36,362 nt of DNA from positions 1-36,362 of the forward strand of contig JADGIG010000034.1 of the NCBI GenBank assembly GCA_018985235.1, given 5' to 3'. Every line of letters starts with the position of its first letter. Position 1 is the first letter of the stretch. Source of the DNA: Sanchytrium tribonematis (Eukaryota). Made by a program: the position numbers and the translations under genes. Below, piece after piece: positions 1,948-30,168 of the stretch. The notes under the pieces were generated by a model. The model made no database searches, had not been told where the DNA came from, and saw only the letters and a list, made by a program, of their open reading frames with translations.

Positions 1948-3580
1948 ATGTCCAACAGAAAAGGGTTTGTGCATCATGATGCAACATCTCCAAAAGAATC
2001 GGAAATAACTACCTATACAGAAAATACCACTACTCAATCGGTTCCTTCGCTGCGCGTCAAAGCAATTTCATTATCATTTATTGACCCACAAATGGAAAAA
2101 GGGTTTAAAAAATGGACTCTCCAAAAGTACGACAGATTTCACGTTTTTTTATACGCTATGATATTGATTTGGGTGTCTTTGTTATTTATATTTGATTATT
2201 TGGAACACGGTTTCGTAAGCCCAAATTATTTTAGAATTGGTTACTATGCTATTGCACTTATTGGGATTTTAGTTACAAAATTGACAACCAAGCATAATGA
2301 TTTTGTGGCTATAATTCTAATAACAATATTGCTCGTGTTATCTACAGGTGATGATGTCACAACATTCAATTCACTTTCTGATTTCTCAAGTTTGGAGTCG
2401 AATTGGTTTCCGATGCTAGTAATTCTCCATGCCAGCCTAAGTCTTATACACTCCCGTTCGTGGTTATATTTATTGATAGTTCCGACTTGCTACTTTGTAA
2501 GTTATTGTATTTCAAGATCATTTTTCCACACAAACAAGGTAAATTTGATTGATTTAGAATTGGTTAGACACTCAAACATTATGGTTATTATTAATGATAT
2601 TTTGCACAAGTGTGTCTGGTATGGTCGGTCAATTTCAACAACATTACCTAACAAGAAGTCTTTTTCGAGAGGAACGGATGCAAGGAAATCTTGGTGGTCA
2701 AAATAAGAGTGTAAGAAGCGAATACAAGCAGCATCTGCTATCCTTAAAATTCAAAGACAAGTCGCTGGAAAAAAAGTATTTGGCAACAAGATGGAGAGAA
2801 ACTATATTGACTAATAGACGATATTCAGCTTTCTTAGTATTGAATGCTGCGATTAGCATCATCTATGAACATTTTTGGAAATTTAATGATACCACAGTTT
2901 TAATGTACCGGTGTTTATTTCATGGCTTACCATTAATTGTATTAATGGCTGCCATTTATTTTATAAATCATACCAAAGAGCAAGAATTGAGTAAAAAATC
3001 AATAAGAGTAGCTTGGTTATACTCCGCAGTGAGAGAAAAAGTGGTTAATTACTATAGAATAACACAAGTCGGTTTACTTTTAGTATTTCTCAGCATATTA
3101 TCTGTTTATATACATCTAACTACATCTCAAAAAGATGCCCCGTTTGAGAGCGTTTTGATGCTTGTATATCTGCAATTCTGTGTTTCCACGCGATTTGGGA
3201 CTTCATACTTTCTTTTTGGAACAGCTGTACTTTTGATACAAAGCGTTGCAGTTTCGTTCTTTAGACCTGATGTTTCTAATTATGTTGTTGGAATTTTATT
3301 TAGTGCTGTAAATGCAATGATATTTATTAGATTAACTGCTTTAAAGAGAAGAAAGCTTTTTATGTTTGAGTCTTCAGAACAACATGGACTATTTACCCAA
3401 TTAGATACTCAAGTAAAAAGCATTGAGACTTTATCCACTGAATATAGACAGAGTTACGCTTCTAGTAATTTGAGCAAAGGCAATTTGAAAACTTCGTCAA
3501 ACACAAATTCAACTTTATCAAGCTCATCTGGTACAAGCTACAAATTTATGGAAAATGTCTTGAGTCTATATAGTGAATAA
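1948..3580 (+). CDS. Two-exon 537-aa polytopic membrane protein (2 x 6TM, adenylyl-cyclase-anchor-like, no catalytic domain); exons 1948-2538 and 2558-3580
   Basis: Removing the 19-nt intron fuses the 252-aa and 328-aa ORFs (HTNK|NWLDTQTLWLLLMIFC). Duplicated SLxFxDxx[ML]EKx[FY] motif precedes each hydrophobic block. Confidence 0.8.
2539..2557 (+). other. 19-nt spliceosomal intron GTAAATTTGATTGATTTAG
   Basis: GT-AG, phase 0. Its length (3n+1) is exactly the frame shift between the overlapping ORFs. Confidence 0.85.
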
Positions 3581-3665
3581 ATCTGTAATAGCTTAAAATT
3601 GGCCTGAAAGCCAATCACAGGATTTTCTCGTTCCTTTAAATCAAATCCCGAAAAGATCAATCCAA

Positions 3666-4250
3666 ATGAGCGTCTTTTTTATATCTATATTGGTTTTTGC
3701 AAGTATAGCTGACATTGATCCTAGTACATGGATGGATCCGTCTACCAAATCATCCTCATCTACTGGCCAACCCAGTACTAGTGTTCAACAAATTCCGGCG
3801 CCTTCCGATTCCCAGAAACCAACAGAATCGGCTAAATCAGGAAACAGCAACTCCACAACTGCAGCAAGCTTGTCTTCATCAAGCAGCTCAGGAGGAGCTT
3901 TACAAACTGAGTCCAATGATCAAAGTTCGTCAACAACAACGATTTCTATAATCGTAGGCTGTGCAGTTGCAGTATTATTTGGAATCGCGATCACATTTGT
4001 CTGTTGGAAAAGAAAGCGACAGGCTAGTAATCAAATAGAATTTGGAAATAAATTCGACACTCCGACATCAGCCAATTCAGATATTCCGCAGTGGAAAAGA
4101 TTTCCTTCGACTTACAATAATGTCGACGAACAAGGGTCAGTTTCTCAAATACAGTCCATTGCAGGAAAATCCGATTTTGGTGATTCCGTTTTCCGATCAA
4201 GACAATATGAATTCGAGGATTTTAATTCAATATACATGAGGTCAGGTTAA
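3666..4250 (+). CDS. Single-pass type I membrane protein with Ser/Thr-rich ectodomain (Mid2/Wsc-like architecture)
   Basis: Signal peptide, S/T-rich stalk, TM IIVGCAVAVLFGIAITFVCW followed by KRKR. Confidence 0.75.
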   Translation: MSVFFISILVFASIADIDPSTWMDPSTKSSSSTGQPSTSVQQIPAPSDSQKPTESAKSGNSNSTTAASLSSSSSSGGALQTESNDQSSSTTTISIIVGCAVAVLFGIAITFVCWKRKRQASNQIEFGNKFDTPTSANSDIPQWKRFPSTYNNVDEQGSVSQIQSIAGKSDFGDSVFRSRQYEFEDFNSIYMRSG

Positions 4251-4338
4251 AGACACAAGTATGTATCATTTTTCGTTTCAGAGCCTCTAATGAAATCATA
4301 GTTTCCCGTAATACAACTGGAGTAAAAGGGTAAAACGT

Positions 4339-4830
4339 ATGACTGACGGAAGATCTAAGGAACCAAAATGTTGTTGTTGCGGAGTTAGAATCGGGCTAGG
4401 TATTTTATTCGTACTATCATTGATTTTCGGAATTTTAGGATTAGTTGGACGAAATTATGGACAAGGTGCCTGTATGGTTGTTGGTGGACTAGTAGGGCTC
4501 TTTGCCGTAGTCAAAAAGAGCGTTAAAGCAGCTACATTTACATTATATTTCTTCATCTTAACGCAATTAATTTCTGTTGCATTTGGAATTTATTACATTA
4601 CAACAATTGGAAGTGCTGTTGATGCTGCTATCGATGATGCTAAAAAGAACAATGATAACACTGACTTATCTCCGGATCAAATTGAGTCATTGCGAGGTGC
4701 GACGAAGTCATACTACTACGCTATTTACATTATAGGTTTGGTGATTAGTGTCATCATTACTATATTAGTTTCGGAGAGAATGATTGCTTTCAGAAAGTGG
4801 CTTAAGACTAAAAGAAGTACCTACACTTGA
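4339..4830 (+). CDS. Small 4-TM membrane protein with N-terminal CCCC motif
   Basis: KCCCCGVRIG followed by four hydrophobic helices; AATAAA directly after the TGA. Confidence 0.75.
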   Translation: MTDGRSKEPKCCCCGVRIGLGILFVLSLIFGILGLVGRNYGQGACMVVGGLVGLFAVVKKSVKAATFTLYFFILTQLISVAFGIYYITTIGSAVDAAIDDAKKNNDNTDLSPDQIESLRGATKSYYYAIYIIGLVISVIITILVSERMIAFRKWLKTKRSTYT

Positions 4831-4958
4831 ATAAATTATTGAAAAACGATTGAATTGTATACAAGCATTTTGTTTTTCACAAATTTGATTTTTTTCCTGT
4901 TATCCAATCAAGATACATTTCAAGTCTTGAAAAGAATCACGGTTCTCTCCAAACGAAA

Positions 4959-5621
4959 ATGATCTTTGTTGGTGGATTGAGTGCCCTAGCTACATTAGAT
5001 CAAGTTCACGATTTTATACAAACTGTGTCGCCTAATCAGGATATTCGAAATTGGGACAACTCGTTACAAGATAAGGTTGAGAAATTAACGGAATCTGGAA
5101 TTGCTGACTCATCAGTATCCACTACCAATACCACAGTACCTGCAAGTACCACGTCTACTGATGTTTCTGAACCGACGCCGACAGTTGCTGTGTCGACTGA
5201 ACAAGATAGTGGTGGACAGGATAGCCAAAACAATGGTGATGATTCTAACAGCTCCAACAGCAGCTACAATACCTATTATGTGGTAGGAGGTGGTTGTGGC
5301 GCTGTTGTACTTGGGGGAGTTGTCGTATTTTATCTACATCGTAGAAAAAAAGCAGAAAAAGATATTTCTGGAGTTACCAGCGATTCGTCCTATTCTTCTG
5401 ATGTTGAGGAAAATGAAAGCAGAGTCACGCCAACACTTTATATGAGTGACGAGGAGCTGCAAAATTGTTCTGCTCGAAGTTCGATTTTGAGAAATGAGTA
5501 TCTCAATACTGACTCAATTATGGAAGGAAGTGTTTACTCCGAAGTTTCTGGAGTGGCAAGATACTCAAGCATATCTGAACCCTACTCAATATATTCTGAA
5601 AATTTATCTTCTGATGCTTAA
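4959..5621 (+). CDS. Single-pass type I membrane protein, S/T-rich ectodomain, S/Y-rich acidic tail
   Basis: Short signal peptide, TM YYVVGGGCGAVVLGGVVVFYL followed by HRRKK; CCAATCA 55 nt upstream. Confidence 0.75.
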   Translation: MIFVGGLSALATLDQVHDFIQTVSPNQDIRNWDNSLQDKVEKLTESGIADSSVSTTNTTVPASTTSTDVSEPTPTVAVSTEQDSGGQDSQNNGDDSNSSNSSYNTYYVVGGGCGAVVLGGVVVFYLHRRKKAEKDISGVTSDSSYSSDVEENESRVTPTLYMSDEELQNCSARSSILRNEYLNTDSIMEGSVYSEVSGVARYSSISEPYSIYSENLSSDA

Positions 5622-5670
5622 CAAATGACAAACTCATGCTGCAATAAATCAGGTCTGTTTACGTTGTGTC

Positions 5671-6582
5671 ATGAAACACTTTTTATCAACTATTATTTGC
5701 AGCCACTTATTTTTCGTCCCTGTGCTTTATTTTGGCTTATTCTTTACATCAGCATGGCACTTGGCTATAATTTACATGATTTGGATAATGCTAGATAGGT
5801 CGCCTTTCAAATTTGGGAGGTACAATAATTTCATGAGAAATCTAAGAATTTTCAAAAATTTTGGTGAGTTTTTTTCCAGTGAAATTGTTTGCGATGTGCC
5901 TTTAGAAGATAAGCAGTACATGTTTGCTTATTCACCTCACGGGATAATCGGAACAGGGTCTTTTTTATCGTTCGGAACAAATGCCAACGGATTGACTAAA
6001 TATTACAAACGTCCGGTGAGGGTTTTGACAATCGATTTCAATTTTTACATGCCAATTTTTAGAGATGTATTTATTTTACTAGGTTATTTGAGCTGTAGCA
6101 AAGAAACTATGCAAAAAAATTTGAAAGAAGGCAATTCATTGGTAATTCTACCTGGTGGTGCTCAAGAGGTAACTTACTTTGATAAGAACAACATCAATGT
6201 TATCATAGACAAACGCTATGGTTTTTTTAAATTGGTTATTGAGAATGGAGTAGATCTTGTTCCCGTTTTAGGTTTTGGAGAAAACGATATTCACAGAATT
6301 ATAAATATATCGCATCCAGTCATTGTCAAATTACAATCAATTTTAAAAACTTATTTCGGATTCATGGCGATTCCTTTTATTGGAGAGTATGGCTTTATAC
6401 CATACAACAAAAAATTGACAACAGTTATTGGATCACCTATCTCGGTTAAAAAAAATTCAAAACCACTAGCAAGCGACATAAGATCCCTACAAGAGCAATA
6501 CAAAGCGGAGTTACTACGAGTATTTGACAAATATAAGAGTTTATATGGCTCTCATGTGAAATCTTTAAAGGTGGTAGAATAA
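5671..6582 (+). CDS. DGAT2: DGAT2/MOGAT-family acyltransferase
   Basis: YMFAYSPHGII (HPHG-motif variant), PIFRD, ILPGGAQE, RYGFFKL...DLVPVLGFGEND, TVIGSPI. Confidence 0.9.
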   Translation: MKHFLSTIICSHLFFVPVLYFGLFFTSAWHLAIIYMIWIMLDRSPFKFGRYNNFMRNLRIFKNFGEFFSSEIVCDVPLEDKQYMFAYSPHGIIGTGSFLSFGTNANGLTKYYKRPVRVLTIDFNFYMPIFRDVFILLGYLSCSKETMQKNLKEGNSLVILPGGAQEVTYFDKNNINVIIDKRYGFFKLVIENGVDLVPVLGFGENDIHRIINISHPVIVKLQSILKTYFGFMAIPFIGEYGFIPYNKKLTTVIGSPISVKKNSKPLASDIRSLQEQYKAELLRVFDKYKSLYGSHVKSLKVVE

Positions 6583-6583
6583 A

Positions 6584-7429
6584 TCATTCAAGTTTGAATT
6601 TTTTAGATTTAGATTTATCAGCAATAAGTTCACTTAGCAAAGGTATTCTATAACCTTGCTGAATTCTCTTCCTTTTTCTTGTTTGTTTTTTGGGAATAAT
6701 GTGATTTTCTTTTTGGCCAACTACGGCTTCATAGTAATTTTGAACCGATTCTTGAGAAAAAGAAGGATTCTCTGGGATTCCTTCTACAACATGCGAAAAT
6801 ATTTCAATACTCATGCATTGGGGATGTTTAGCTTGAGCTACCGTGGATGATTCTTCAGCAATGTTGGAGACTGGGATCTGGTCCGACATTAAATTCTCAA
6901 AATTTCTCTGATTAGCAAGCTGGGAGATAGACAGCTTATCAATGTCGATCATGTAATCCAATTGAGATGTGGGAATGACATTGGTCTCTATAGAAGGAAG
7001 CACCTGAGTGAATTCGTCACAGAGCATGTCAAGTTTGCCAAGAGATTCTTGAGGATTGAATATGTTTTGTATTTCGGAAAATCTCTTGTCGTATAGATCG
7101 TTGAGAGTTTCATCTGATCCTTTAAACGTATTGGCAAATGGCATCAACACGTTTGAAAATGACTGTACTCCATTTTCAAATGGAAAAATTTGACAGTGAT
7201 CATCAAATTCGAAACTTGTTTCCATTTTGTCACATGCATAAATGCAAATATGAGGACTTAATTCTTTGATTTGCATTTCAAATGAATTCAACGAGTAAAT
7301 TCCATTTTCCATATCATCTACAAAACAAAAGTATTGCCCATCATAAATTTTGCCGTCTCTAATGTAAACTCTGCATCTAAAACTGTACCTGGTGTTTTGC
7401 CGTAGTAACAAGAATAAAGGTCTCAACAT
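6584..7429 (-). CDS. Hypothetical protein with C-terminal NLS-like basic tract; may extend to ATG 7525; weakly REC114-like
   Basis: 281-aa ORF ending 1 nt from the DGAT2 stop. An upstream 31-codon ORF in the same frame is separated from it only by one TAG. Confidence 0.6.
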   Translation of the reverse strand: MLRPLFLLLRQNTRYSFRCRVYIRDGKIYDGQYFCFVDDMENGIYSLNSFEMQIKELSPHICIYACDKMETSFEFDDHCQIFPFENGVQSFSNVLMPFANTFKGSDETLNDLYDKRFSEIQNIFNPQESLGKLDMLCDEFTQVLPSIETNVIPTSQLDYMIDIDKLSISQLANQRNFENLMSDQIPVSNIAEESSTVAQAKHPQCMSIEIFSHVVEGIPENPSFSQESVQNYYEAVVGQKENHIIPKKQTRKRKRIQQGYRIPLLSELIADKSKSKKFKLE

Positions 7430-7745
7430 CTAAGAATTTGTTACAAGAGCTCCAATGTCAAGCGCATTTTCGACGCCCCATTCAATGAAACGCTGATAAC
7501 CAGTTAGAATGCATTCCAACTGCATAAAGTAGTAATTTCAATTTGCTAGCATAGACTGCATTTCGATTTCCAAAGTTAATTATATGCGTGTATTTGTTTG
7601 CTAAATTTGAATGCAACGCATTTAAATAAGAATATGTTGAAGTTCTAAATAGACGGAAACTTGACAAACCCTGCAGTTTGTAAATATTTAAGCTTAATTT
7701 TCCATAAAATGACTTTTATGCTTGATGACCTTTTTAAAACAATAG

Positions 7746-9869
7746 ATGTTTGTGAGTGTTTACAATCTCTTCGAAATAGCCATAATGGGTATTCAATTTC
7801 TATCACTTACGGCTAGTTACAATGTTGTCTGGAATAACGATTGGATTGGAATTGCTAAAGTTCTTTCTTTTTTTACACAAATCCCGATAACAGAGGATGT
7901 TAGAATTCAGCACGGTTATATTTCTTGCTTATTTCCTTTGGTAATCAGTTTGATTGTTTTATTAACTTTCAAACCTCTTTTTACTGTTTTTAAGGATGTA
8001 GTATCACTCTTTTGTTGGGCAGGACTAGGATTTGGGATATACGAATCAACTTCAAAAGAAAATGTTTCTTTGGGATTCCAGCTAATCAGTATATGTGGAG
8101 CAATATTAGGAATTTTACTCGCTGAAGCCATTATCAAAAAACTTTGGAAAAGGAGAGCAAAAAAGCTTAATCGAGCAGAAAGCTTTGATACCGAGCCAGA
8201 CGATTCAAACAAAAAACCCTTCTGGAAGCAGCTGAGAAATTTATCACTCTCTGGAATATTCATATTTGTTGCAATATTGGCGATCCAGTCCTCACAAAGT
8301 TGGTGGTATATCTTAATATTATTTGCTTGTAGCTCTCTCCTTCTCTACAATTTTATATCTAATTTAGTTCCCAAAGGAAGAGAGTTGAACTCTAAAATCA
8401 ATTATCTTTTCCGAAAGCACACAACAAAAATCATATTAACTATTCTAAGTGCTTTTTATATTCCTTTAACTCTTGATTGCTTACAATTTATCCTGCCTTC
8501 TAAATACCTTCTATATGGAAAGGATATAACTTGCACTTCGAATCAAATAATTAAAATGAAAATGCCCTTTCCTCCAGCCACCTTTGACAGCCTGATGTGC
8601 CTAGAGTCTTTTAACAACAATACTAATCATGTAAGCCTAAAAATGAGCAATTATCATCTTAGTGTTGACTTAAATCAAGAGAGATTTTACCAATCTGATA
8701 CTACCATCCCACTTTATAGTGAGGTGTATCCTTATTTGTTTCCAAGCAGCTTTATTATTTTTGCCCTGGTTTCCATAGGTCTCCCATTTTTATATTACAA
8801 GCTGGTAAATATATGCTATATTTATTTACAAGAATTACCCAAATACAACATTTCTGAGAAAAGTCAGGACTGGGGTGTCGCATCGAAATTATCCTCAAAC
8901 TGTTGCAATTCGCTTTATTGCAATTTGAATGAAAAATTCAAGGATTTTAAATTGATGATGTTGGCTTTTAGACTTTTGGTTGTGATTGTGACAAGTGCGA
9001 CCTATGTCCCAAATATTGAAGGAAACGGATCTCAATATGTATTTATAATATTAGTATTTGTACATTTTGTTATATTAGCTTCAGAAATATATTTTAGGCC
9101 CTTTACGAATTACACGGAGAATTTCTTCCTCTTTGGCTTTCAATTTGTCAATTTGGTGTTTGTAATTTTCGCAACCTTATCGGCATATAGGACAAATCTT
9201 CCAGCTGTCTTACCATTTGTGACTTTAGCTGTTATAATATTGGTGCCTATTCTGGCAATTATTGTAGGATTTTCATATGATCTTTACATTAAAAAGAAAA
9301 AAACTGAAATTGATGCCTCCTTTACTAATGTCGATGCTAGCAAAGTGATTTTGGATTTGGATATGAAGATTGACAAAAAATTACAGTCTCTAGTAGTGTT
9401 CTATTTTGCGACCCTGTATGGATTAATATTTGTAGGTTCTGCTGTGTATTATTATGGTACCACTAAGAATTTCTTCACCTTCAGGTTCTCGAATGGTAGA
9501 ACCAATGGTAACATGGAGGTGACTTTGAAAGAAATGACTAGCTTAGAAGACAAATTTCAATTTGGAAGATCTTGCGAAGATATTTCTATTTTATTGAAAA
9601 ATTGTAACTGTGTTAATATTCCACAAGTATACAAACTCAATAGTACCGAGGTCTGGAAATGTGATCAGGTTGCCTATGCTGATCAACTGCTAATTTTAGA
9701 ACGAACTACAGAAAGTAACTTTATGGATTTAAACTTCAAAATACGCCCATTTTGTTCCAACCAATTTGATACAAACTATTTATTGAGTAACATGACTCTT
9801 CGAAAGGAACCAATTGCAGATTTAGTTAATTTTGATGATTTTAATTCAGAATGGATAAAATTTTGCTGA
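7746..9869 (+). CDS. Large polytopic membrane protein with TRP-like/FLC-type C-terminal TM domain
   Basis: More than 12 hydrophobic helices; SLY...KLMMLAFRLL and YFRPFTNYTEN resemble the LY..Y..WE...RK and PY/F...N motifs. The true start may be ATG 7709 via an intron. Confidence 0.7.
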   Translation: MFVSVYNLFEIAIMGIQFLSLTASYNVVWNNDWIGIAKVLSFFTQIPITEDVRIQHGYISCLFPLVISLIVLLTFKPLFTVFKDVVSLFCWAGLGFGIYESTSKENVSLGFQLISICGAILGILLAEAIIKKLWKRRAKKLNRAESFDTEPDDSNKKPFWKQLRNLSLSGIFIFVAILAIQSSQSWWYILILFACSSLLLYNFISNLVPKGRELNSKINYLFRKHTTKIILTILSAFYIPLTLDCLQFILPSKYLLYGKDITCTSNQIIKMKMPFPPATFDSLMCLESFNNNTNHVSLKMSNYHLSVDLNQERFYQSDTTIPLYSEVYPYLFPSSFIIFALVSIGLPFLYYKLVNICYIYLQELPKYNISEKSQDWGVASKLSSNCCNSLYCNLNEKFKDFKLMMLAFRLLVVIVTSATYVPNIEGNGSQYVFIILVFVHFVILASEIYFRPFTNYTENFFLFGFQFVNLVFVIFATLSAYRTNLPAVLPFVTLAVIILVPILAIIVGFSYDLYIKKKKTEIDASFTNVDASKVILDLDMKIDKKLQSLVVFYFATLYGLIFVGSAVYYYGTTKNFFTFRFSNGRTNGNMEVTLKEMTSLEDKFQFGRSCEDISILLKNCNCVNIPQVYKLNSTEVWKCDQVAYADQLLILERTTESNFMDLNFKIRPFCSNQFDTNYLLSNMTLRKEPIADLVNFDDFNSEWIKFC

Positions 9870-9888
9870 TTAATTTTAATCTATATGA

Positions 9889-10053
9889 ATTGAACATTCA
9901 ACATGCCAAAAGCGATCTATATGTCAGGAACATTTTGTCTTTCAGGAATCAATCTTAAGGCTTAATTGTATGCACATGTTTCACCAAAATTGCATTTCAA
10001 ATTGGATTCAATACAAATACAGCTGTCCAATTTGTTTAGAGCCATGTGAATGA
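9889..10053 (+). pseudogene. RING-H2 zinc-finger fragment without an in-frame start codon
   Basis: Frame reads IEHSTCQKRSICQEHFVFQESILRLNCMHMFHQNCISNWIQYKYSCPICLEPCE*. TGA at 9886 precedes it, and the first Cys ligand position is Arg. Confidence 0.65.
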
Positions 10054-10071
10054 TGGATATCATGTTATTTA

Positions 10072-10329
10072 TTATATTTTCAATAAATAATACCAGTAAT
10101 GAGGAGGCCTAGCCACGTTCTGCAACAAGCCTTGCGATAGCACCTCATAAAAATCATTTAAATTACTGCAGTAGCCTTTCTCCGCACAGTCACTAATAAA
10201 TTTGTCCAGCTGTTTTATTTCCGTATCGTTAAGCCTTGATATTCTCAGAAGTTTCTTTATATCCGTAAGGTAATTGTATGCCATAAATGGATCTGTAAGA
10301 CCATTAACAATGATAACTGTACTGTTCAT
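10072..10329 (-). CDS. Small hypothetical protein (85 aa)
   Basis: ATG-initiated ORF; TAATAAA at its 3' end; no recognisable family. Confidence 0.45.
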   Translation of the reverse strand: MNSTVIIVNGLTDPFMAYNYLTDIKKLLRISRLNDTEIKQLDKFISDCAEKGYCSNLNDFYEVLSQGLLQNVARPPHYWYYLLKI

Positions 10330-10470
10330 GAAGTAACGGGTGCTTTACTCATTAAATACATCAAAAGCGATCTCTCATTCAGACACATCGAAGTCAAATT
10401 GGAAATATCGATTTTTGGTCGGATCGGTCAAATATTAGGTTGGATCGAAAATTTCAGGTAAAATTGAAAG

Positions 10471-10785
10471 TTATTTACTTTTATGCCCCACAAGATCGCT
10501 GTAGCTGAATGACTTTCGGGATATCCTGCAATATGTGCTATTTTGCTCTTGCCAGCCAATTATTTGCTTGAATCTTGCGACTTCGGTCGGCGTCAAATAT
10601 ATGCTGATGATTGCTAGCCATTTTTTATCACAAATGTTTTCTCTTGGAGAATACAAAATCCTATCGTCAACTTTGATAAGGAATTTGTTCATCCTTAAAA
10701 GTTCACGTAATTCTTGTGGACGATTAAGTAAAGAACACTCTTGGTTGCTGATTGTTGGTAACACAATTTTGGCGGCCAAAGTCAT
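10471..10785 (-). CDS. Small hypothetical protein (104 aa)
   Basis: ATG-initiated ORF with protein-like composition in an otherwise unoccupied gap. Confidence 0.5.
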   Translation of the reverse strand: MTLAAKIVLPTISNQECSLLNRPQELRELLRMNKFLIKVDDRILYSPRENICDKKWLAIISIYLTPTEVARFKQIIGWQEQNSTYCRISRKSFSYSDLVGHKSK

Positions 10786-10853
10786 TTTTATTGATATCTA
10801 GTTTTAGTGGGCCGCCCCCTTTTTAATTTTAGTCTAAAAATTGGCAAAAAAGT

Positions 10854-11033
10854 TTATTGGGCGTATTGGGGCAAATTGTCAAAGCTACCCGATGAAAAAA
10901 TTAGATCATAAGGAGGTAGACCATTGATCTTGGCTTGTATTGATCTGATATAAAACTGATGTTTACGAAATTCGAAAATCTTCTCATCTGGATGTTCTAT
11001 GTGATAAAGTAGAGATCCTTTGTTGTAGGTCAT
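10854..11033 (-). CDS. Small hypothetical protein (59 aa, MTYNKGSLLYHIEHPDEKIFEFRKH...), absent from the ORF track
   Basis: ATG 11033 to TAA 10854. The stop is embedded in AATAAA like many bona fide genes here. Confidence 0.35.
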   Translation of the reverse strand: MTYNKGSLLYHIEHPDEKIFEFRKHQFYIRSIQAKINGLPPYDLIFSSGSFDNLPQYAQ

Positions 11034-11152
11034 CTTTGGTTTTGGTTGTGATGAGGTGTGACTATATACCTGATCTATTCATTAGTGATCTCTAAATATT
11101 AAAAGAGTGCTCTCCGAGTTAACATATTTGTTTTAAATCTTAAATTTTGCAA

Positions 11153-12844
11153 ATGTTGCTCTTAATTTTCTTTCAAATCGGGTCGTGTTTAAAAGTTGAA
11201 GACATGTTTGATTTTTCTGTAAATTCCTATTTGAAATTAGCGTACCCTAGAGACGAGCTTCATCCTTTAAAATGTGTCGCAAAAAATCGAACAGAGCATG
11301 AAGAGGTTATGGGAGATTATATGCTAACACTTGTTGATTCGCTGACTACTGCTATCTCCATGAGACAGCCGAATCGACTTTTGCAGCTTCTTAACTTGCT
11401 GACATTGAAAAATTTTGACCTGAATTCTACAGTTGCGGTTTTTGAAGCTAATATTCGAGTTCTAGGTTCTCTAAGCAGCACAGCCTTGCTCCTCGAAGAT
11501 ACCAAATTTTTAAAATGGTTTTCTTCCAATAACACTATAACACAACAATTACGGCAACATCAGAAAAGGCTAATATCACTTGGCAAAGATCTTGGAGACA
11601 GGCTTATGAAATCATTTGCAACCTATTCTGGTATCCCAACTTCAAAAGTCAATTTAAGATACCCATTGCAACTCTACAATGTTACGTCAGAATATGTCCG
11701 AGCAGAAAACGTTGAATCCTCTCATAGAAACACAAATTGTGCCTCGGCCGGTACTCTTTTACTGGAATTTGGTATGCTTTCAAAGCTCACTAGCAATTAT
11801 ACCTACTACCGCTATGCTCGACGAGCCTTGATCGCAGCAGTCCATACTCAAACCTATTCTGGCTTGTATGGAAACGAAATTGATGTTGATGGCCGAATTA
11901 TAGACATACACCACTCATTAGGTGGAGGCATAGATTCACTTTATGAATATTTGCTGAAAGGCTATGTAGTTTTCAATGATGAAACATTACTGGATTTATT
12001 TTACCATTCTTACCAAAATCTATTTGCTCTCAATGCGTACAAGTCTCAAACCAAATATTTCTTTAAATTCAATAAGCAGTGTATTCCTGTACTTATGCCA
12101 CCGACTTTTCACTTAAATGTCAATGCAAAAACAGGTCAACTTTTAATTCCACGCATCAATGGTTTGGCCGCATTTTTTCCTGGTTTGCAAATTCTTTTTG
12201 GGGATGTGGACTTTGCATTTTATCATTTGCTAGTATATATCAGGTTATTGGAAGTGTACCCTTTTGTACCTGAGGCCTTCAACATCAATGTCCATAATGT
12301 GGAATTTAACATGTACCTATTACGTCCCGAAGTGTATGAAAGCATGGTATTTGTCAAGTCGGCTTTCAAGGCAAGTAATTTAGAAATTGACGTGACACTG
12401 GAAAATCTTACTAAAGATTGTATGGCGCGGTTTGAAAAATATTGCAAAACTAAATGCGGATACGCTAGTTTGATAAATTTGTTGCTAAAGAAGAAAGAGG
12501 GTAGAATGGAATCCTACTTTATTAGTGAAACTTTGAAATATATGCACTTAATGTTTGAAAACGAAAAGCATCCATTCTTGAGTGAACATTTTACTTTTAC
12601 AACAGAGGGTCATCCTATTAGAGTCATGAATTGGAAAAAGCAAATGTCAGAATTTCCATTGTTTAATATTAGTATCCCTAGAATTAAAAAGATTAAATTA
12701 ACCAAAAAATGCATCAAACCGCAAAATCCTTACACAAATTTAATTGAAAATCACAAATTTTCGACTTTTGAAAATTTTATATTTACTAGGAAAGTTAGGA
12801 AATTACTAAAGAAGGCATACAGAAAGGTGCTATTTAATTTCTAG
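11153..12844 (+). CDS. GH47 alpha-1,2-mannosidase, EDEM/Mnl1(Htm1)-like
   Basis: LTLVDSLTT, FEANIRVLGSL, AGTLLLEFGMLS, GGIDSLYEYLLK, LRPEVYES, MESYFISETLKY, FTTEGHP. First ATG is 11153 (the track starts at TTG). Confidence 0.92.
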   Translation: MLLLIFFQIGSCLKVEDMFDFSVNSYLKLAYPRDELHPLKCVAKNRTEHEEVMGDYMLTLVDSLTTAISMRQPNRLLQLLNLLTLKNFDLNSTVAVFEANIRVLGSLSSTALLLEDTKFLKWFSSNNTITQQLRQHQKRLISLGKDLGDRLMKSFATYSGIPTSKVNLRYPLQLYNVTSEYVRAENVESSHRNTNCASAGTLLLEFGMLSKLTSNYTYYRYARRALIAAVHTQTYSGLYGNEIDVDGRIIDIHHSLGGGIDSLYEYLLKGYVVFNDETLLDLFYHSYQNLFALNAYKSQTKYFFKFNKQCIPVLMPPTFHLNVNAKTGQLLIPRINGLAAFFPGLQILFGDVDFAFYHLLVYIRLLEVYPFVPEAFNINVHNVEFNMYLLRPEVYESMVFVKSAFKASNLEIDVTLENLTKDCMARFEKYCKTKCGYASLINLLLKKKEGRMESYFISETLKYMHLMFENEKHPFLSEHFTFTTEGHPIRVMNWKKQMSEFPLFNISIPRIKKIKLTKKCIKPQNPYTNLIENHKFSTFENFIFTRKVRKLLKKAYRKVLFNF

Positions 12845-13540: not shown

Positions 13541-13668
13541 TCACAAAGACAAGACAGTCCCCAATATTTCATTAAATCGACATCCTCACCACGCCTATCA
13601 AATCTTGTTCCTCTGTTCTTCATGGCAGGTATATTTGATAAAAGCAAGTTCAAATTCACAAAGAGGAT

Positions 13669-14987: not shown

Positions 14988-15044
14988 ATTTTAGATGTTA
15001 TAATTTGATAATATATTTTATGTTACTCGTGGTGGCTTGTTCAA

Positions 15045-15914: not shown

Positions 15915-15938
15915 ATATTTTAAAATAAAGCAATTTAC

Positions 15939-17322: not shown

Positions 17323-17323
17323 A

Positions 17324-18828: not shown

Positions 18829-20503
18829 ATGATTTATAGCGCTATATACTCTGGAGTTCAAGTTTATGAAATTAGAGTGAGAAACGTGGATGTAATGAGA
18901 AGAATGGAAGATAACTGGGTGAACGCCACACAAATTTTGAAAGTAGGAGATATTGATAAGCCTCAAAGAACTAAAATACTTGAAAGAGAAGTGCAAACAG
19001 GAAGACACGAAAAAGTTCAGGGCGGCTATGGAAAATATCAGGGAACATGGGTTCCATTTGAACGTGGTGTGCAATTAGCTAAAGATTACAATGTGTACCA
19101 TGTCATGAGTGAGATATTGGAATATATACCCGGCGAATCACAAATACAGCAAAAGAGATCACTGCCATCTAACCCAACCCCAAAACCACCCAAGAAAAAG
19201 AAGACTAGTAATTCTACTGCAATTTCCACCACAACCACAAGAAAAAATAATGTATCTAACGAATCTAAAAGCATTCCTACCGCTACATTTACTTATAATG
19301 TTCCACAGCCAAAAGACTATCGAGACCTTCTGATCAAATCGCTTCTGGAAAGTTCAATGGGTACACCGCCGTTTCTGTTAAAATTACCTCTGGATCTGGA
19401 TCTACAAATGAATTTGGACGCACAAGGACACTCGGCATTACACTGGGCATGTGCTCTTGCAAGAGTAGACATAGTCCGACACTTGTTGAAGATAGGAAAA
19501 GAGCGAAATGTAAATTTAAAACATCACCTTAATGTATTTGGACAATCCCCGCTTATGCGAGCCATCATGTATGCAGATAATTATGAGGAAAAAAGATTTC
19601 CGGAACTATTGGAAATGTTCAAGGATTCAATTTTCTCCATTGACTATATGAATCGCACAATCTTGCATCATATTGCCATAGTTTCTGGCGATGAGGGTAA
19701 GCAAGCCGCTTGTAATTATTACCTGAAATGCATTTTTGAGCTTCCAATTCAAGGTAAAGAAAAATTGCTGGACTTTGTTGATTTAGACGGACTTACCGCC
19801 CTTCAATTAGCTTTTATTAAGAAAAACAATAATTTGGCTAAAATTTTAATGAATTCGGGAGCCAAGCCTCCATCAATCTCGACACGTCCACTGGCTCAGC
19901 CAGCAGATCCTAATTCTCTCACTTACTTGGAAAATTTAAATTCAAGTTACTCTTCCCAAATATCACTATCACTGAAAGAGGCCAGAGAACTCAAATCTCA
20001 GCTAGACAGTCTGCAAAGTGTGGCTGGAGATTACTTAAATCAATACGAGCGTGTTAAAGCTATGAATAATGACCTGTCAAAACTTAAAGATCGAGAAGAA
20101 ACTTTAAAGAAGACTTTGAAGAAACTCAAGGTAGACATGTTTGATTTGGATATTAAAAATTATGTAAGAAAACATCCTAATTTGGAAATTCCATCAGACA
20201 ACTTAGACTTAAGAAATTTCGCATCTGAATATGTCTTGTCTTCTCAAAAGCCTGAAGTTCTAAGCCAAATGGCAAAAAATCTCCCGAAATTGAAAGAATA
20301 TGTCGAAAAGCAACAATTTCCAAAAGCCATGCTCGATGAGTGGGTGAACACTGTTGCAGATGGACATAAGGATGAAATAATTCGAGAAGGTTAATATTAT
20401 TCATGTAGATAACAGAGGAATTTCAAAGCTGAATCTATTGAAGAACATTATGACCAAAATATGTAACGTGAACGAGGCAGAATTAATAAAATTAGCACAA
20501 TAA
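18829..20503 (+). CDS. MBP1: MBF/SBF DNA-binding subunit (Mbp1/Swi4/Res-like: APSES/KilA-N, ankyrin repeats, C-terminal heterodimerisation motif); exons 18829-20389 and 20409-20503
   Basis: [63 protein letters not shown]. The spliced tail is [17 protein letters not shown]. Confidence 0.88.
20390..20408 (+). other. 19-nt spliceosomal intron GTTAATATTATTCATGTAG
   Basis: Contains the apparent stop. Removal gives [32 protein letters not shown], with the stop embedded in AATAAA. Confidence 0.8.
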
Positions 20504-20595
20504 ATTATAATTTTCGGAAATTTGTTTCAAAAGTGATTGGACAAATTCACGAAAATAAAAAATCTACACAAAATTCATTCTATTTCTACTATATA

Positions 20596-21312
20596 ATGTC
20601 TGTCGCAATCTCCAAGAAGAAGAAGTTTGTAAGTGATGGAGTATTTTACGCTGAATTAAACGAATTTTTTGCCAGAGAATTAGCTGCTGAGGGATTTGCT
20701 GGTGTTGAAATCCGTGTCACTTCCTCAAAGACCGAAATTATCATCAAAGCTACCAAATCACAAGATATTCTGGGCGAAAAAGGCAGAAGATTAAAAGAAC
20801 TTACATCCTTAGTTCAAAAAAGATTTGGCTTTCCTGAGGACAGCTTAGAATTATTTGCAGACCGTGTTTCTAACCGTGGATTATGCGCAGCTGCACAGTG
20901 TGAAGCTTTGAAATACAAACTATTGGAAGGGCTTGCCGTTCGACGTGCTGCTTATAGCGTTTTAAGAAATGTTATGGAAAGTGGAGCAAAAGGTGTCGAA
21001 GTTGTTATCTCTGGTAAATTGAGAGCAGCTCGTGCAAAATCCATGAAATTTAAAGATGGTTTCATGATTCATACTGGACAACCTGGAAAAGATTTTATTG
21101 AACATGCTACTCGTCATGTCATGTTGCGTCAAGGTGTTCTCGGTGTCAAGGTAAAAATTATGAAAGAAGTTGACCCAACTGGAAAGAATGGTCCTAAAAA
21201 TCCTTTACCAGACAAAATCACATTTTTCGAACCTAAAGATGAACCTGACGTTGTTGTTCCAACTTCCGAGAATTTTAACGACAAGAGCGAGCGTCAAAGC
21301 AAGCCTTATTAA
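20596..21312 (+). CDS. RPS3: 40S ribosomal protein uS3
   Basis: [44 protein letters not shown]. First ATG is 20596. Confidence 0.98.
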
Positions 21313-21360
21313 ATAAATCAAGGTCGTATTATAATACTTCTGAAACTTCGTTGTGAGATA

Positions 21361-23635
21361 ATGAATCAATTAAAAGAAGCCTTTTCTAACAAAGACATAA
21401 ACTTGTTACTAAAAAGATGCAAATTGGTGTTAAATTCTTCAGGAAATGATGCCAAAGATTTGAATTCATTAGGGGTTGAAATATGGAACTCAGCTGTAAA
21501 GTTGCAACTGGATAAAAGATATAAAATATGCGCTTTTATATTGATGGCCGCATATTTTAAAGATTCTTATGATTTCAAATCTTCTATTAAACTTATTGCG
21601 ATGGCAGGAAGATTGCTTGCTGAATCGGAAAAAACAGACTGTGATTATATCTATGGTCTTGTATCAAATAGAATTGATCAAACTCTTGGAATGCTAAAAG
21701 CTAAGAACAAGTACCAAAAATTTGTTGCTGATATTGTTCCGATTTTGCTTTACAAACTAAAACAAGGTTGGTTTGAAAATGACCTTTCAATATCAATTCT
21801 TCATATTGAAAAGTTCATGCTGGTTCAAACATCTAAAATTGAAAAAGAACAATTATTGATGTGCATTCTCAATTTATACAGGTCAGATCAGCCTACAGAC
21901 GAAACTCAGTTGACTTTATTGTCGTTGCTTGAAAATTTAGCAAATGCCAGTGATAATCCTTTCGCAGCAAAATACTACTTGATTATCAGTGAGGTAAATT
22001 TGAAACTTAACAAAATAGAAGAAGCCAAATGTGCTCTGATTAAATCTTCTGAGGCGCAAATCATGTTAAAGGGGATTTTTCTAGCACTGACAATACCCAA
22101 TTTTCTCAACACATCCCCAGAAACGTTTCTATTCGAGTGTTTATCAAAAATTGGTATTGTGCATGAAACCTACAACGATGTTGCTTTGTTGTATAATGAA
22201 GTTTGTAAAATTTCCAATGAACTTGCTCTTGCCTATTTAACTGCTGTATTCTCAAGAAGTCGAGCACACCCTGCAAAATGTAAAGATTTAACTAACAAAA
22301 CTGCTTCTTTGATGTTAGAATGTTTGATAGGAAATGAAGACACAAAGCAAATCAACATTTTCATTGAAGACATATTTGAGACCATCAATGATGCAAAGCT
22401 TTCTAATAGTATTTGCATATTATTATGGATAAAGGGGGATGATTGTTTATCAAATTTTGAATACCAAAATGCTTTGAATTATTTTGAGCCATCTCTGAGA
22501 TTATTAAAGCCCGAACAAGATAATTATCTGATTCTGAAAAAGAAAATCTGTTTCTGCAAACTGCAATTAGGTGCTTTGGACTCCAGCGATATTTTAGACG
22601 ATCCGTTCCTATCGTTCCAATACAACTTGCTGTTTAGTATTTCAAATTGTTTTGGTTTAATTGAAAGTATGGAAGACCCTAATGTATTAATTGGATGTGC
22701 TTCTCTAGCTTTTCAAAAAAAAGAATCAAAACTTTTATTGTGTATTCTTGATAAAATTCATACTGTCTGCAGCAAAGGCGATTTGGATATTTGTTTGACA
22801 AGGGCAGCGATTCGTTTAGCCATCAAAGTAGATTTAAACATTGAATTGATCATCTCGATTCTTAAGAAAGCCGATAATCAACTTGATAAAGAGGAAATGA
22901 ACTGGTTTTACAATGTCACTTGGAATCTTTGCCTACAAATATATCAAATAGATCAAATATCTGCTTTTAGGTTGCTTGAAATCAACGTAAATTTTGCAGC
23001 AACAACAGATTTAAGAATTAATAGCCTTTTGTTCATGTGTTCTATAGGCTATGAGATTTTTGAGCAATATAACGTTGATCACATTTTAACCGATATTGAC
23101 AATGCTTGTAATCTAATAGCGGAAAATAATTTGACAGACTTGATCGAAACCTCGGCAAAAATGCAGTTAGAAATTTATATGTTATTTCAGAAGGAGCAAG
23201 AAGCGTTAGATCTCTTACCGTGCTTTAAGTCATTACAGCCCGGAATCTTAGTTGAAGTGTTGGAAAATAGCTGTATTTCGATAAAATGTAATTTTATTTA
23301 ATTAAGTTGCGATTCCTCTTTTAGAAACGATTTTATTGTCGAACAATATAGTAGCCATTTCCAAGGCGTTGCGAATTTTTATATCGAATCATAAAGAAGT
23401 TGACCATTTGCCTTATTTTAAAAAGGCCTTGGCTTTTGTTCACGATAAGGCGTATTGTCAAGAGGAACTTATTTGGCTCATGATAACTGCTTGGAATAAA
23501 GGGATTAATGAGTTCACTTTATACAAAAAAGTAGGCGAATGGTGTGATATCGCATTTCAAATCCTAAAGCATCTGGATAATAAGGAACAATACCAAAAGC
23601 AAATGGAAACTGCATATATCGAGATGATGCAATAA
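21361..23635 (+). CDS. SPO22: Meiotic TPR protein Zip4/Spo22/TEX11 (751 aa); exons 21361-23287 and 23307-23635
   Basis: LNSLGVEIWN, ILLWIKGD..L...YQNALNYF..SL, EEMNWFYNVTWNL, YCQEELIWLMITAWNKG. The two ORFs are joined by a 19-nt intron. Confidence 0.82.
23288..23306 (+). other. 19-nt spliceosomal intron GTAATTTTATTTAATTAAG
   Basis: Phase 1. Removal reads SIKFAIPLLETILLSNNIV into the 23336 ORF. Confidence 0.85.
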
Positions 23636-23848
23636 ATCTATGCCAATAAAATTTGATCACCGAGTTTTGCCAATTAGTTATTGGGTGGGTAATTATAAAT
23701 TGGTCTCTAACTTTAACTTTGTGGCAATCCGGTTCCCTTAGTTTCACTGATACTACTTAATTAGACAGTATACCACATATAAATACTCCAAAAAGCATTT
23801 TTATATTTTAATTGAATGAAACACCTTGGGTAGGTGGCTTGAGTAAAG

Positions 23849-26450: not shown

Positions 26451-27819
26451 TTATTCCTTATACGATTTTTTGGTTCTTTTCCGAAGATTTCTTGTTTCAC
26501 TGTCTTCACTTCCCAAAACATCTGATTGTAAAGATAGTGTTTTGTGAATCTTAGACTTAGACCTTTCTTTAGTGGGGGCGGAGTAAGAGACACTTTTAGG
26601 CAGATGTGGTGTTTGCTTCGAATTTAGGGTATCTACTAATACGAATTTGTATATTGCGAATAATATCAAGAATATCGCAAAGAGAGCCCAGCCCACGATA
26701 ACATGCGGTGGGAAAGGTTTTGGAAACATTCCTTTCCCAAATTTGATAACTATTAATAATTCTGTGGTTATTGCTGCCAGCATAACCCACGCATTTGGAC
26801 CTAACCTTTTACTACATAAAACTTAAATACTCAGATTCGTTTAAATAATGATATGCTTCTCTGACTGCTGGGAGAGCCATAAAATAAACCCAGACCAATC
26901 TCTGGGTGTTTAAAGGATGCTCTGGTGGAATATGTAGTACAAATTTCAAATAAAAGGCATTTAACTCGCAAAGCAATACAGTCATTGCAATTAAAATTAA
27001 ACCAACATAATGCCTAAATGTACTGGTGAAATGCCATTCAAATCTAGTCCAAGAATGAGGTGTGAATTGCTGAAACGACCGATAAACTTTCCCTTTTATG
27101 GTTGCTATAGAGGAAATTCCAGTCCATGAATATTCTTTTAGCTCCAAATATCTACATGTTTTCATTCCAAGAACTATCCCAAGATAATTGCAGACCATGA
27201 CATCTAATATCCAATGATCCCACCAACATTCTTTGAAATTAGGTAGCTGGTGTTCAAATGAATATTCTAATAGTTCAAATCCAATCGATAACCCCCAACA
27301 TAGGTAATAATCCCGTAACAACAGGGCTTTGAAAAACCATCCGAATGCATGAGCAATCACAAAAATGTCCATTTGCCTCATTACATTCGCATAATTTAAA
27401 TCGCACGAGTCTCCGTAACTTCTTTCCGTCAAGGTTTTTCCAAGTGTGTTGTCATAAGTTTTCAGCATATACATAACATCACTTTTTGATTGAGATAAGG
27501 TGAAAATTAAGATTTGTAAATAAATGATAGCACAACCAAGTACACCTCTCCAAAGTACCGGATGTGGTCTTAAAAAAGGCCCATTTTTAAACTGAACCAT
27601 TCCAAAGACAATAAATATAGTTGCGCTGCTCAATATTCCATACTTTACATTTTCAACAGTTTCGAAAGGGAAGAACGCGATATAAAAGAGCGCAGCCAAA
27701 ACCATAACTAGCACACTAAAAGAATGTGGGGTATATAAAAATTGAATATCAACGTCTTCCGTATCCATGCTGAGGCGTCGCGGGATATTTGGGAGAGGTG
27801 CCACTGAATTAGAAGACAT
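26451..27819 (-). CDS. PTDSS: Base-exchange phosphatidylserine synthase (PTDSS1/2 type, 449 aa); exons 27819-26831 and 26811-26451
   Basis: GPFLRPHPVLWR, DIFVIAHAFGW, FELLEYSFEHQLPNFKECWWDHWILDV, ELNAFYLKF, and spliced YLNESDKRLGPNAW...ELLIVIKFG. Confidence 0.93.
26812..26830 (-). other. 19-nt spliceosomal intron GTATTTAAGTTTTATGTAG
   Basis: Phase 2. Removal restores the conserved KRLG..W..........TE segment of PTDSS. Confidence 0.9.
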
Positions 27820-28459: not shown

Positions 28460-28487
28460 GTAAACTATGTTCAGAATTTATTTACAT

Positions 28488-28928
28488 TTAAATTTGAGAC
28501 AAAATCTGTTTCCTATCATTTTCCTTAAATACAACGGAATGGACTTTTCTATGCCTAAATGACATAAGAATCTTTTTAGGATAACAAGGCAAGCTCTGAG
28601 ACTCTACTGCATTCAATTCTTGCTGAAGGCTCACATTCTTTGGCCGTTTTCTATAATTATTCGAGAATTCTTCAGCCCGTTCAATTCTCTGGTCATAATC
28701 CAAATATGAGTAAGTTGTGCAAAATACTGCACATCTCAATAAGTGTGATTTATATGCATAAGGCCGCGAATTAAGTTTTAGTCCCTTTTTACAAAATTGA
28801 CAAGCTACATGCAGACTATGCACATTTCTTTGATGTCTCAACATTGTGCACCGTTTTGTAAATCTTTTACCGCAGAGATTGCACTCTTCCATCTCTTTGG
28901 AGTGATTTAATATATCCATTATATCCAT
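28488..28928 (-). CDS. C2H2 zinc-finger protein
   Basis: CNLCGKRFTKRCTMLRHQRNVH plus CQFC...HLLRC (C2HC). Confidence 0.8.
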   Translation of the reverse strand: MDIMDILNHSKEMEECNLCGKRFTKRCTMLRHQRNVHSLHVACQFCKKGLKLNSRPYAYKSHLLRCAVFCTTYSYLDYDQRIERAEEFSNNYRKRPKNVSLQQELNAVESQSLPCYPKKILMSFRHRKVHSVVFKENDRKQILSQI

Positions 28929-29121
28929 TTAAGTGATATTGAAGTTTTAAAATGTCTTGGCAGGTTTAACCTAGACGTATAACGTATTTTATTTGAATGC
29001 GATACAAGAAGTCAAATATATGGCTTCCTTTCATACATAGTGATTCAGGCAAGAAGTGATTAATAAATTTAATAAAAATTTGTAACGGAGTTTATAAAGC
29101 AACAAGAACCAATTATAATCG

Positions 29122-29195
29122 GTCTCAGTGGGCAAGAGGTTTACGCCGTTGCTCTCCGGAAGCAAAGATCGGGAGTTCGAATCTCTCCTGAGACG
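29122..29195 (+). tRNA. tRNA-Arg(CCG), intronless
   Basis: Acceptor GTCTCAG/CTGAGAC, D stem GGC/GCC, anticodon stem TTGCT/AGCAA with loop CT-CCG-GA, T arm GGGAG-TTCGAAT-CTCTC, discriminator G. Confidence 0.92.
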
Positions 29196-29227
29196 ATCTT
29201 CCTTCTAAAATAATATTTTTGACTTGT

Positions 29228-30168
29228 TTATTGCTCACTAAATTCTTTAACTAATCCCCATTCACCATTAACTTGTTGCTGATACATATATACCTAAATT
29301 AGTATTGTAATACTTTGTTATCTCCACAACTAGCAGCCAATATTTGTCCCACCAAGGACCAGTTGACTCTCCAGACTACGTCTTTCAAAGAAATTTTTTG
29401 AATTTTAAATTCCTGATAATCGGATGTAGCATATATGTAAACATTTTTATCTTGCGAGCAAACAGCCAAAAATTGTCCAGGTAATCCTATTGAAGGTGCG
29501 CAACTAACATCTCGAACCCAGTCACCGCATAATCCAATTGGTTTCGGAGTCCATTTCGCCTGTCCTTCATCAACGTGCCTGGTCCATAAAATCACTTTAT
29601 TGTCAGACCCACCAGTTATAAGCCTTAGATTGCTGGAAACGCTTTCAGATCTTTTAACCAAAGAATTTGATTTTACAAAAGGAACAAAAGAAAGAGAGGT
29701 ACATCCTAAATGATGAGCTTCAAATGAATCAGTACTCCATTGCTTTGTCGATTCGTCGTAATATATTAAGGCAACACTTCCATCACTACATGCTCCACCA
29801 ATGATTAGCCCATACTCAACATCAGCAAATTCTACTTGATTCATACTCTTTTGTCCGCTATATTGGTATACTTTTTGCCAATGGTCACTGAATTTATAAA
29901 TGTTGATTTGCTTGTCATAGCCGCAAGTTGCTAGAAGATTATATTTTGGATGTGAAAATTGGACATTCCAAACTGGGCCAGAGTGATCTTTTAATACGTC
30001 TTGTAAAACATAATTTTGTGGCCCACTGGAACTTGTCGTCTTGAAAATTCTGACTGTCTTATCACTAGATCCAGTGGCTAATAAGGTACCATGGTAATTA
30101 AATGCAGCAGAATGTATCACATCTTCATGACCAGAATCAAACTCGTTCTTGTTGGATAATTTCTCCAT
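29228..30168 (-). CDS. SEC13: COPII/nucleoporin WD40 protein Sec13 (306 aa); exons 30168-29314 and 29293-29228
   Basis: SGHEDVIH, ATGSSDKTVRIF, HSGPVWNVQFSHPKY, DWVRDV, VWRVNWSLVG, spliced GDNKVYMYQQQVNGEW. Confidence 0.95.
29294..29313 (-). other. 20-nt spliceosomal intron GTATTACAATACTAATTTAG
   Basis: Phase 0; contains the apparent stop and a TACTAAT branch-like site. Removal restores the Sec13 C-terminal GDNKV.......GEW. Confidence 0.9.

Follow-up and report, generated by a model that had tools for sequence, protein, structure and literature searches.

Putative spliceosomal introns of 19 to 20 nucleotides with a fixed candidate branch A in a fungus of the sanchytrid lineage

Five genes in a 36,362-nucleotide stretch of DNA (contig JADGIG010000034.1, called the window below, always at its full length) are broken in frame, and an earlier note on this sequence proposed that each break is a spliceosomal intron of 19 or 20 nucleotides (nt). 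Are these segments really introns, or do they reflect errors, decay or some unusual form of translation? Our analysis favors the first answer: we put at about 0.88 the probability that the five segments are ordinary U2-type spliceosomal introns of 19-20 nt in a sanchytrid-lineage fungus, with branching predicted at an A at position -6 from the 3' end. Breaks at the same codons in related genomes and tests against protein family profiles make it very likely that they are fungal-lineage GT-AG introns with a putative branch A fixed at -6, and for Sec13, PTDSS and Mbp1 the sequence comparisons leave the intron reading well supported. The candidate introns and their flanking exons are as follows.

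1948..2538, plus strand: exon 1 of gene 1, an open reading frame (ORF) for a multi-pass membrane protein
2539..2557, plus strand: candidate intron 1, 19 nt, phase 0, putative branch A at 2552
2558..3580, plus strand: exon 2 of gene 1; spliced model of 537 amino acids (aa)
18829..20389, plus strand: exon 1 of a Mbp1/Swi4-family transcription factor (Pfam KilA-N and ankyrin; Mbp1/Swi6 matches in PDB)
20390..20408, plus strand: candidate intron 2, 19 nt, phase 1, putative branch A at 20403
20409..20503, plus strand: exon 2 of Mbp1, about 31 codons; spliced model of 551 aa
21361..23287, plus strand: exon 1 of Zip4/TEX11 (SPO22), PF08631 with E=0.007
23288..23306, plus strand: candidate intron 3, 19 nt, phase 1, putative branch A at 23301
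23307..23635, plus strand: exon 2 of Zip4; spliced model of 751 aa
26831..27819, minus strand: exon 1 of PTDSS (phosphatidylserine synthase), PF03034 model positions 1-246 of 273
26812..26830, minus strand: candidate intron 4, 19 nt, phase 2, putative branch A at 26817
26451..26811, minus strand: exon 2 of PTDSS, PF03034 model positions 249-273; spliced model of 449 aa
29314..30168, minus strand: exon 1 of Sec13 (Pfam and homologue search)
29294..29313, minus strand: candidate intron 5, 20 nt, phase 0, with a TACTAAT branch-like element, its A at 29299
29228..29293, minus strand: exon 2 of Sec13, 21 codons, the last WD strand; spliced model of 306 aa

All five segments start with GT, end with AG and measure 19, 19, 19, 19 and 20 nt on the strands listed. 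Their 3' ends read as the earlier note had quoted them, with an A at -6 in 5/5 (intron position 14 or 15), and the polypyrimidine tract is absent, as had also been observed. The segments are 79-89% A+T and have no G at +5, the 5' site amounting to little beyond GT followed by A or T. With the segment taken out, a long upstream frame (197-658 codons) continues in every case into a downstream one (21-340 codons), the open codons joined at introns 1 to 5 being 197+340, 545+30, 658+108, 345+119 and 286+21.

Candidate introns were ranked using profiles made from non-sanchytrid, more distant homologues only (118 for PTDSS and 13 for Sec13). In Sec13, intron 5 came first of 134 candidates with 295.2 bits, against 277.3 for the next candidate and 275.8 for the unspliced sequence. 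A removal of 20 nt was also the best of all deletion lengths from 1 to 40, and exon 2 aligns gap-free with the C-terminal strand of Sec13 homologues. In PTDSS, intron 4 ranked first of 117 candidates (565.6 bits, with 558.4 for the next plausible candidate, of 25 nt, and 488.4 for the unspliced sequence). Four of the introns had been said to restore family motifs. This held for PTDSS and Sec13, in which a conserved frame is restored; in Mbp1, Zip4 and gene 1 what is restored is an open frame. The Mbp1 tail failed its profile test (see below), and exon 2 of Zip4 offers a coding-frame score (+20 for the exon's frame under a codon model, the two others scoring -72 and -63) and a weak TPR match (E=0.044), with 0 matches when it was searched against PDB.

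The window is gene-dense fungal DNA with a GC content of 34.9%, in which Ste12, Mbp1, Zip4, PTDSS, Sec13, Pop1 and ribosomal proteins were recognized. The best named match, from EukProt, is Amoeboradix gromovi for PTDSS (77% protein identity, all others at or below 54%), for Sec13 (84%) and for the C-terminal part of Mbp1 (68%). A PTDSS tree built from 28 of 120 available rows places the window and A. gromovi in one clade (support 100/100) on a long branch (1.15 changes per site). A. gromovi is classified in Fungi, Sanchytriomycota; judged by this grouping and by the best named matches at three genes, the window is from a sanchytrid or a close relative, distinct from A. gromovi. Sanchytrids are described as the sister group of Blastocladiomycota, with genomes of 10.5-11.2 Mb and a GC content of 34.6-36.3% (PMC8371127). 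The Sec13 alignment was also used to search metagenome contigs and prokaryote genomes for sanchytrid DNA, and gave no match.

The published sanchytrid proteomes come from TransDecoder run on genomic contigs, with introns unmodelled (PMC8371127). The relatives' database proteins are unspliced ORF calls, and their ends therefore read into introns. In 7/7 orthologue ORFs of relatives the break falls at the codon at which the window's frame is broken (one PTDSS, three Sec13 and three Mbp1, at 64-84% identity), and these breaks carry a GT-compatible codon in the same phase. In Sec13 (P0122, P0123 and P0124), the 20 residues before the donor are identical to those of the window (4 sequences) and are followed by Val (GTN) and then by divergent read-through. 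The Mbp1 orthologues P0146, P0147 and P0148 have Gly at the window's split codon in 3/3, then a stop within 1-5 residues, while the A. gromovi PTDSS (P0002) stops one codon past the window's donor as Thr-stop, compatible with a phase-2 GT. Position is conserved and the interior diverged in Sec13 (3/3), Mbp1 (3/3) and PTDSS (1/1), and approximately so in Zip4. Because 7/7 breaks fall at the same codon, assembly indels, which the earlier note had named among the findings that would undo its proposal, are excluded for PTDSS, Sec13 and Mbp1.

A length can be inferred for four of the relatives' introns. In P0122 and P0124, the window's Sec13 exon 2 resumes in a shifted frame after exactly 19 nt, with 32/46 and 19/20 informative positions compatible (next best length 0.54), and both introns have an A at -6, a C or T at -9 and an ATAG end. 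In Mbp1, P0146 ends L-I-stop and P0148 ends F-I-stop, which read as YTNATHTAG and TTYATHTAG and imply, with TAG as the stop, an intron of 20 nt; among lengths greater than 8 nt an AG is possible only at 20 nt, longer introns being also compatible. All 4/4 are 19-20 nt long with A at -6 and Y at -9, features found in 69/387 of the GT..AG 19-20-mers in the window, and the putative branch A is thus at -6 in 9/9 introns (5 from the window and 4 from relatives). Less of the proposed consensus survives: GTWWWW at the 5' end and K at -4 describe the five introns of the window but not those of the relatives, where position +4 is C or G in P0148 and P0124 and position -4 is A in P0122 and P0124.

Several observations weigh against reading the five segments as 19-20-nt introns. 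Plain GT..AG 19-20-mers are at chance level (387 in the window vs 379 in shuffles), and looser motifs are hardly enriched over shuffles (89 vs 74.8; 22 vs 14.3). For the strict motif at 19-20 nt the window has 5 hits vs 0.3 in dinucleotide shuffles (0/200 reach 5), but this test is circular, the motif having been derived from the same five segments, and was set aside; at 15-45 nt the strict motif finds 9 segments, namely the five introns and four of 28-34 nt. The case therefore rests on homology, with conservation across species as its non-circular support, and the four introns placed in relatives come from only 2 loci. Those of Mbp1 hinge on the stop being TAG. Scored against a profile of 14 motif-bearing fungal Mbp1/Swi4 tails, exon 2 of Mbp1 gave -1.0 bits, with 372/500 shuffles as high, so that restoration of the Mbp1 tail is unconfirmed; a search with the Mbp1 alignment returned 80 loci of other fungi, none matching past residue 437 of 521. 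In PTDSS, when any deletion of 1-40 nt was allowed, a non-canonical 16-nt cut (575.2) and its GT..TG version (572.1) scored above the 19-nt cut (565.6). The reason is that the family has a spacer of 6 residues (in 44/48 matching sequences) and the 19-nt model leaves 5. Since the site offers no 16-nt GT..AG and the TG version loses the -6 A, 19 nt was kept with this doubt flagged.

The same caution extends to Zip4, gene 1 and short introns in general. A 34-nt strict-motif alternative in Zip4 has its donor at 23273 and its acceptor in common with intron 3. The homologue P0150 (43% identity, 655 aa) has TEX11/ZIP4 clusters as its matches (0.95). Those clusters are 856-964 aa long, but P0150 terminates close to the end of exon 1, with its stop within ~15 residues of the intron 3 site, near but not provably at it. 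Its tail could hold a 20-nt phase-1 intron. The alignment is ambiguous, and P0150 was therefore left out of the breakpoint count, from which the short Zip4 fragments P0151 and P0152 were also excluded. The Zip4 junction is weaker than those of Sec13 and PTDSS, and from the sequence an intron there is plausible. In gene 1, intron 1 is the sole strict-motif match and one of 61 frame-restoring GT/GC..AG options (4-149 nt), and neither a test on the internal repeats (40 for the 19-nt model, 46 unspliced) nor a codon model was informative on the junction. A weak hit to PF06327 in exon 2 (E=0.002, below cutoff) suggests that gene 1 may consist of two internal repeats of an adenylate-cyclase-type membrane anchor with no cyclase catalytic domain. 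Intron 1 is the least supported of the five, the intron reading being plausible. In microsporidia, short introns are often spliced poorly and many predicted ones failed validation (PMC6349667).

If the frame breaks were assembly or sequencing indels, or marks of decayed pseudogenes, GT..AG would fit by chance, and the abundance of such 19-20-mers in this A/T-rich window, as many as in shuffles, leaves some room for this, with gene 1 as the least supported case. It is the most remote of the explanations considered, given the seven orthologue ORFs from other genomes that break at the same codons and the conserved coding sequence that flanks the PTDSS and Sec13 breaks on both sides; contigs from sequencing run X1 (DNA) also cross all five intron sites with 0 gaps, X1 being possibly the window's source and so not independent. 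Hardly less improbable is that the segments are kept in the mRNA and bypassed in translation by programmed frameshifting or stop read-through, or that the proteins end early, with relic frames downstream. Introns 1 to 5 lie at 37, 94, 86, 73 and 93% of coding length, four of the five thus in the last 27%, where truncation would cost less, and tiny introns are reported to be spliced with low efficiency, at 63% and 37% in Mikrocytos (PMC10245619) and below 20% in Encephalitozoon cuniculi (PMC6349667). However, exact removal of 20 nt from Sec13 scores 295.2 against at most 290.1 for every shorter deletion, and the relatives keep GT- and AG-compatible ends and the -6 A with a free interior and a shift that differs (19 vs 20 nt), unlike a frameshift signal. 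Partial retention beside splicing is possible.

A greater share of the doubt, still a small one, falls on the introns being real with some boundaries placed elsewhere, at 16 nt ending in TG for PTDSS, at 34 nt for Zip4 or at another junction in gene 1; lengths would then be less uniform and acceptors maybe relaxed. The 16-nt GT..TG cut does restore the PTDSS family spacer at a higher score, and Zip4 has its strict-motif alternative. Yet the 16-nt PTDSS version places a T at -6, with an AG following 3 nt later, the length of the sanchytrid PTDSS branch makes a deletion of one residue unremarkable, and the 19-nt options carry the element that the Sec13 and Mbp1 introns of the relatives show independently. 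The boundaries of 19-20 nt are those discussed from here on.

With these boundaries, GT and AG ends are present in 5/5 introns of the window, and in relatives the sequences are compatible at the 5' end in 7/7 and at the 3' end in the 4/4 that can be placed. The match to TACTAAC is 6/7 in the Sec13 intron (TACTAAT) and 2-4/7 in the other four. Minor, U12-type introns have the consensus RTATCCTT at the 5' site and TCCTTAAC at the branch site, and neither U12-type motif was found in the five intron sequences. The window has ~33 putative genes with 5 visible introns, and no longer intron is needed. All 9/9 introns are 19-20 nt long, a range drawn from one window and two loci in relatives and from which stop-free introns of 18 or 21 nt would escape, as they leave no frame break. 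Orthologous lengths differ by 1 nt, Sec13 having 20 here and 19 in two relatives and Mbp1 19 here and probably 20 in two. The proposal of length-defined splice sites is thereby partly contradicted in its strict form; because length varies while the A at -6 stays in place, the spacing looks anchored on the 3' end.

These introns would be removed by standard two-step lariat splicing by a U2-type spliceosome, with the A at -6 as the branch nucleotide. U2 small nuclear RNA (snRNA) may pair with intron positions -11 to -5, the register in which TACTAAT of the Sec13 intron lies, and the first AG downstream, 4-5 nt past the branch A, would serve as acceptor. The branch site and 3' site would then be fused in one 9-nt element, roughly Y-T-N-A-Y-N-T-A-G, with the 5' GT 14-15 nt upstream of the branch A. 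The lariat loop, which the earlier note put at 13-14 nt, becomes 14-15 nt when counted as in PMC9505925 (branch A = position 14-15). Between the 5' site paired with U6 (~+1 to +6) and the branch helix, 2-3 nt would remain free. From what is generally known of the spliceosome, U1 and U2 could hardly occupy the intron together in the usual way with so few free bases, and recognition would take place across the intron's own length (intron definition). Genome compaction may have shrunk the introns to near a steric floor at which 19 and 20 nt are both tolerated.

An Rfam search of the window found only a tRNA and no snRNA. Stentor has all snRNAs and core U1 proteins despite 15-nt introns (PMC9505925), and the account of mikrocytids in PMC10245619 identifies no U1 snRNA, so that either outcome is possible for sanchytrids. 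A bolder proposal is that sanchytrids splice almost only 19-20-nt introns, the shortest typical size in any fungus or animal, through a remodelled spliceosome with U1 and U2AF reduced or lost, which would use the 9-nt branch A/AG element and a GT 14-15 nt upstream. We regard this as speculative and rather doubtful as a whole, whereas the half of it that makes 19-20 nt the shortest typical intron size in fungi is, taken alone, probable.

Ultra-short spliceosomal introns are a known kind. The heterotrich ciliate Stentor coeruleus has introns of 15-16 nt with the branch A at position 10/15 or 11/16, that is, at -6 (PMC9505925). The introns of the window resemble these in their GT..AG ends, A/T richness, (putative) branch A at -6 and lack of a strong branch consensus, but are 3-5 nt longer, have a loop of 14-15 vs ~10 nt and belong to a fungus with few introns (5 in ~33 genes). 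Introns of 18-21 nt are described from chlorarachniophyte nucleomorphs and of 16-17 nt from mikrocytids (PMC10245619, PMC2483917). The size class of the nucleomorph and the compact genome of a symbiont or parasite are shared, and the nine introns at hand also span a narrow length range; unlike the nucleomorph, which is intron-rich with >800 introns in ~300 genes, the present case is of independent origin and concerns the main nucleus of a fungus. Encephalitozoon cuniculi introns are 22-76 nt long with a CTAAYTT branch motif (PMC3629993, PMC2483917, PMC6349667). Microsporidia are likewise fungal-related, intron-poor parasites with GT..AG introns and a similar CTAATTTAG-type 3' end, whereas the introns here are shorter (19-20 nt) and the lineage is separate, sanchytrids being sister to Blastocladiomycota.

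Introns of myxobolids and dicyemids have medians of 22-27 nt (PMC13644364). These are also parasites in which the 5' site is reduced to ~GTa and the polypyrimidine tract is very short or absent. Their conserved A's shift away from the AG as the intron lengthens, whereas here the A is at -6 at both lengths, and the typical length, taken over nine introns, is shorter here. In Yarrowia, Trichomonas and Giardia the branch point lies at a set distance from the AG without a polypyrimidine tract (PMC2483917), so a fused branch and 3' element is a known architecture. Those introns, unlike the 19-20-nt ones with a weak motif found here, are long (medians ~100-200 nt in Trichomonas and Yarrowia) and have a strong ACTAAC.

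No report of tiny introns in sanchytrids was found in the literature searched, supplements and most subscription journals being outside its coverage, so a prior mention is possible. In the main text of PMC8371127 the word 'intron' appears a single time, in the title of a reference, and 'splic' does not occur; in PMC10459994, too, 'intron' is confined to a reference. What appears to be new is the lineage and the size: a phylum sister to Blastocladiomycota, 19-20 nt, in several species. At 19-20 nt, these probable introns are shorter than any fungal intron found in print.

Other features of the window can be noted beside these introns. Just downstream of Sec13 exon 2 lies the tRNA gene found with Rfam:

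29122-29195, plus strand: tRNA-Arg(CCG), no intron reported

Four ribosomal-protein-family genes (RPS25, RLP24-like, RPS3 and RPL14) look intronless. The 3' bias of the introns and these intronless ribosomal genes are the reverse of the pattern in yeast and microsporidia, and may reflect detection bias without RNA. Two intron-like GT..AG segments with an A at -6 lie outside coding frames, at 16717-16736 (plus strand, 20 nt) and 23756-23773 (minus strand, 18 nt), and could be introns of untranslated regions or chance. Micro-exons overlooked at the 5' end were also sought, with an ATG at most 120 nt away and an intron of 16-25 nt; the two candidates, at 539-563 and 4301-4322, were weak, lacked the full motif and were rejected. 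At 9870-11140 there are three short minus-strand ORFs of 74-108 codons without a Pfam match, and no tiny intron that would join them is evident. The meiotic crossover gene Zip4/TEX11 (21361-23635) is apparently intact once spliced, which hints at meiosis in this lineage. Compaction is extreme (17322-17324, 20503-21361, 31291-31292), the stops of RLP24-like and POP1 being one base apart and Mbp1, RPS3 and Zip4 separated by about 50-100 bases. Three multi-pass membrane proteins outside any Pfam family, at 12830-13540 (minus strand), 14139-14987 (plus strand) and 15012-15914 (plus strand), are paralogues (46% and 26% identity) and possibly form a lineage-specific receptor-like family. The X1 contigs at window positions 1-17000 and 35855-36274 come as paired alternative versions, each at about half depth, which is consistent with a heterozygous diploid or a mixed population.

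The prediction that standard gene calls miss such introns was borne out, as the database entries for the window (P0001, P0121, P0145 and P0149) and those for A. gromovi all terminate within the intron. The A. gromovi proteins P0002, P0122 and P0146 (EukProt EP00835) are labelled 'complete' in 3/3, but their ends lie within an unspliced tiny intron or just beyond it, and the public A. gromovi proteome is probably truncated at many genes. Because the proteomes were called on genomic contigs and these three proteins end in an intron, claims of gene loss and domain loss for the sanchytrid phylum may have to be checked against a new annotation in which the minimum intron size is set to <=15 nt.

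If the reading as introns holds, sanchytrids would add a separate case, arisen within fungi, of introns close to the smallest size that the spliceosome can handle. Their 19-20 nt would lie below the 22 nt of Encephalitozoon and below the 22-nt median called the shortest in animals. A comparison of sanchytrids, which were sequenced from infected algal hosts, with their Blastocladiomycota sisters would then bear on what sets minimal intron length.

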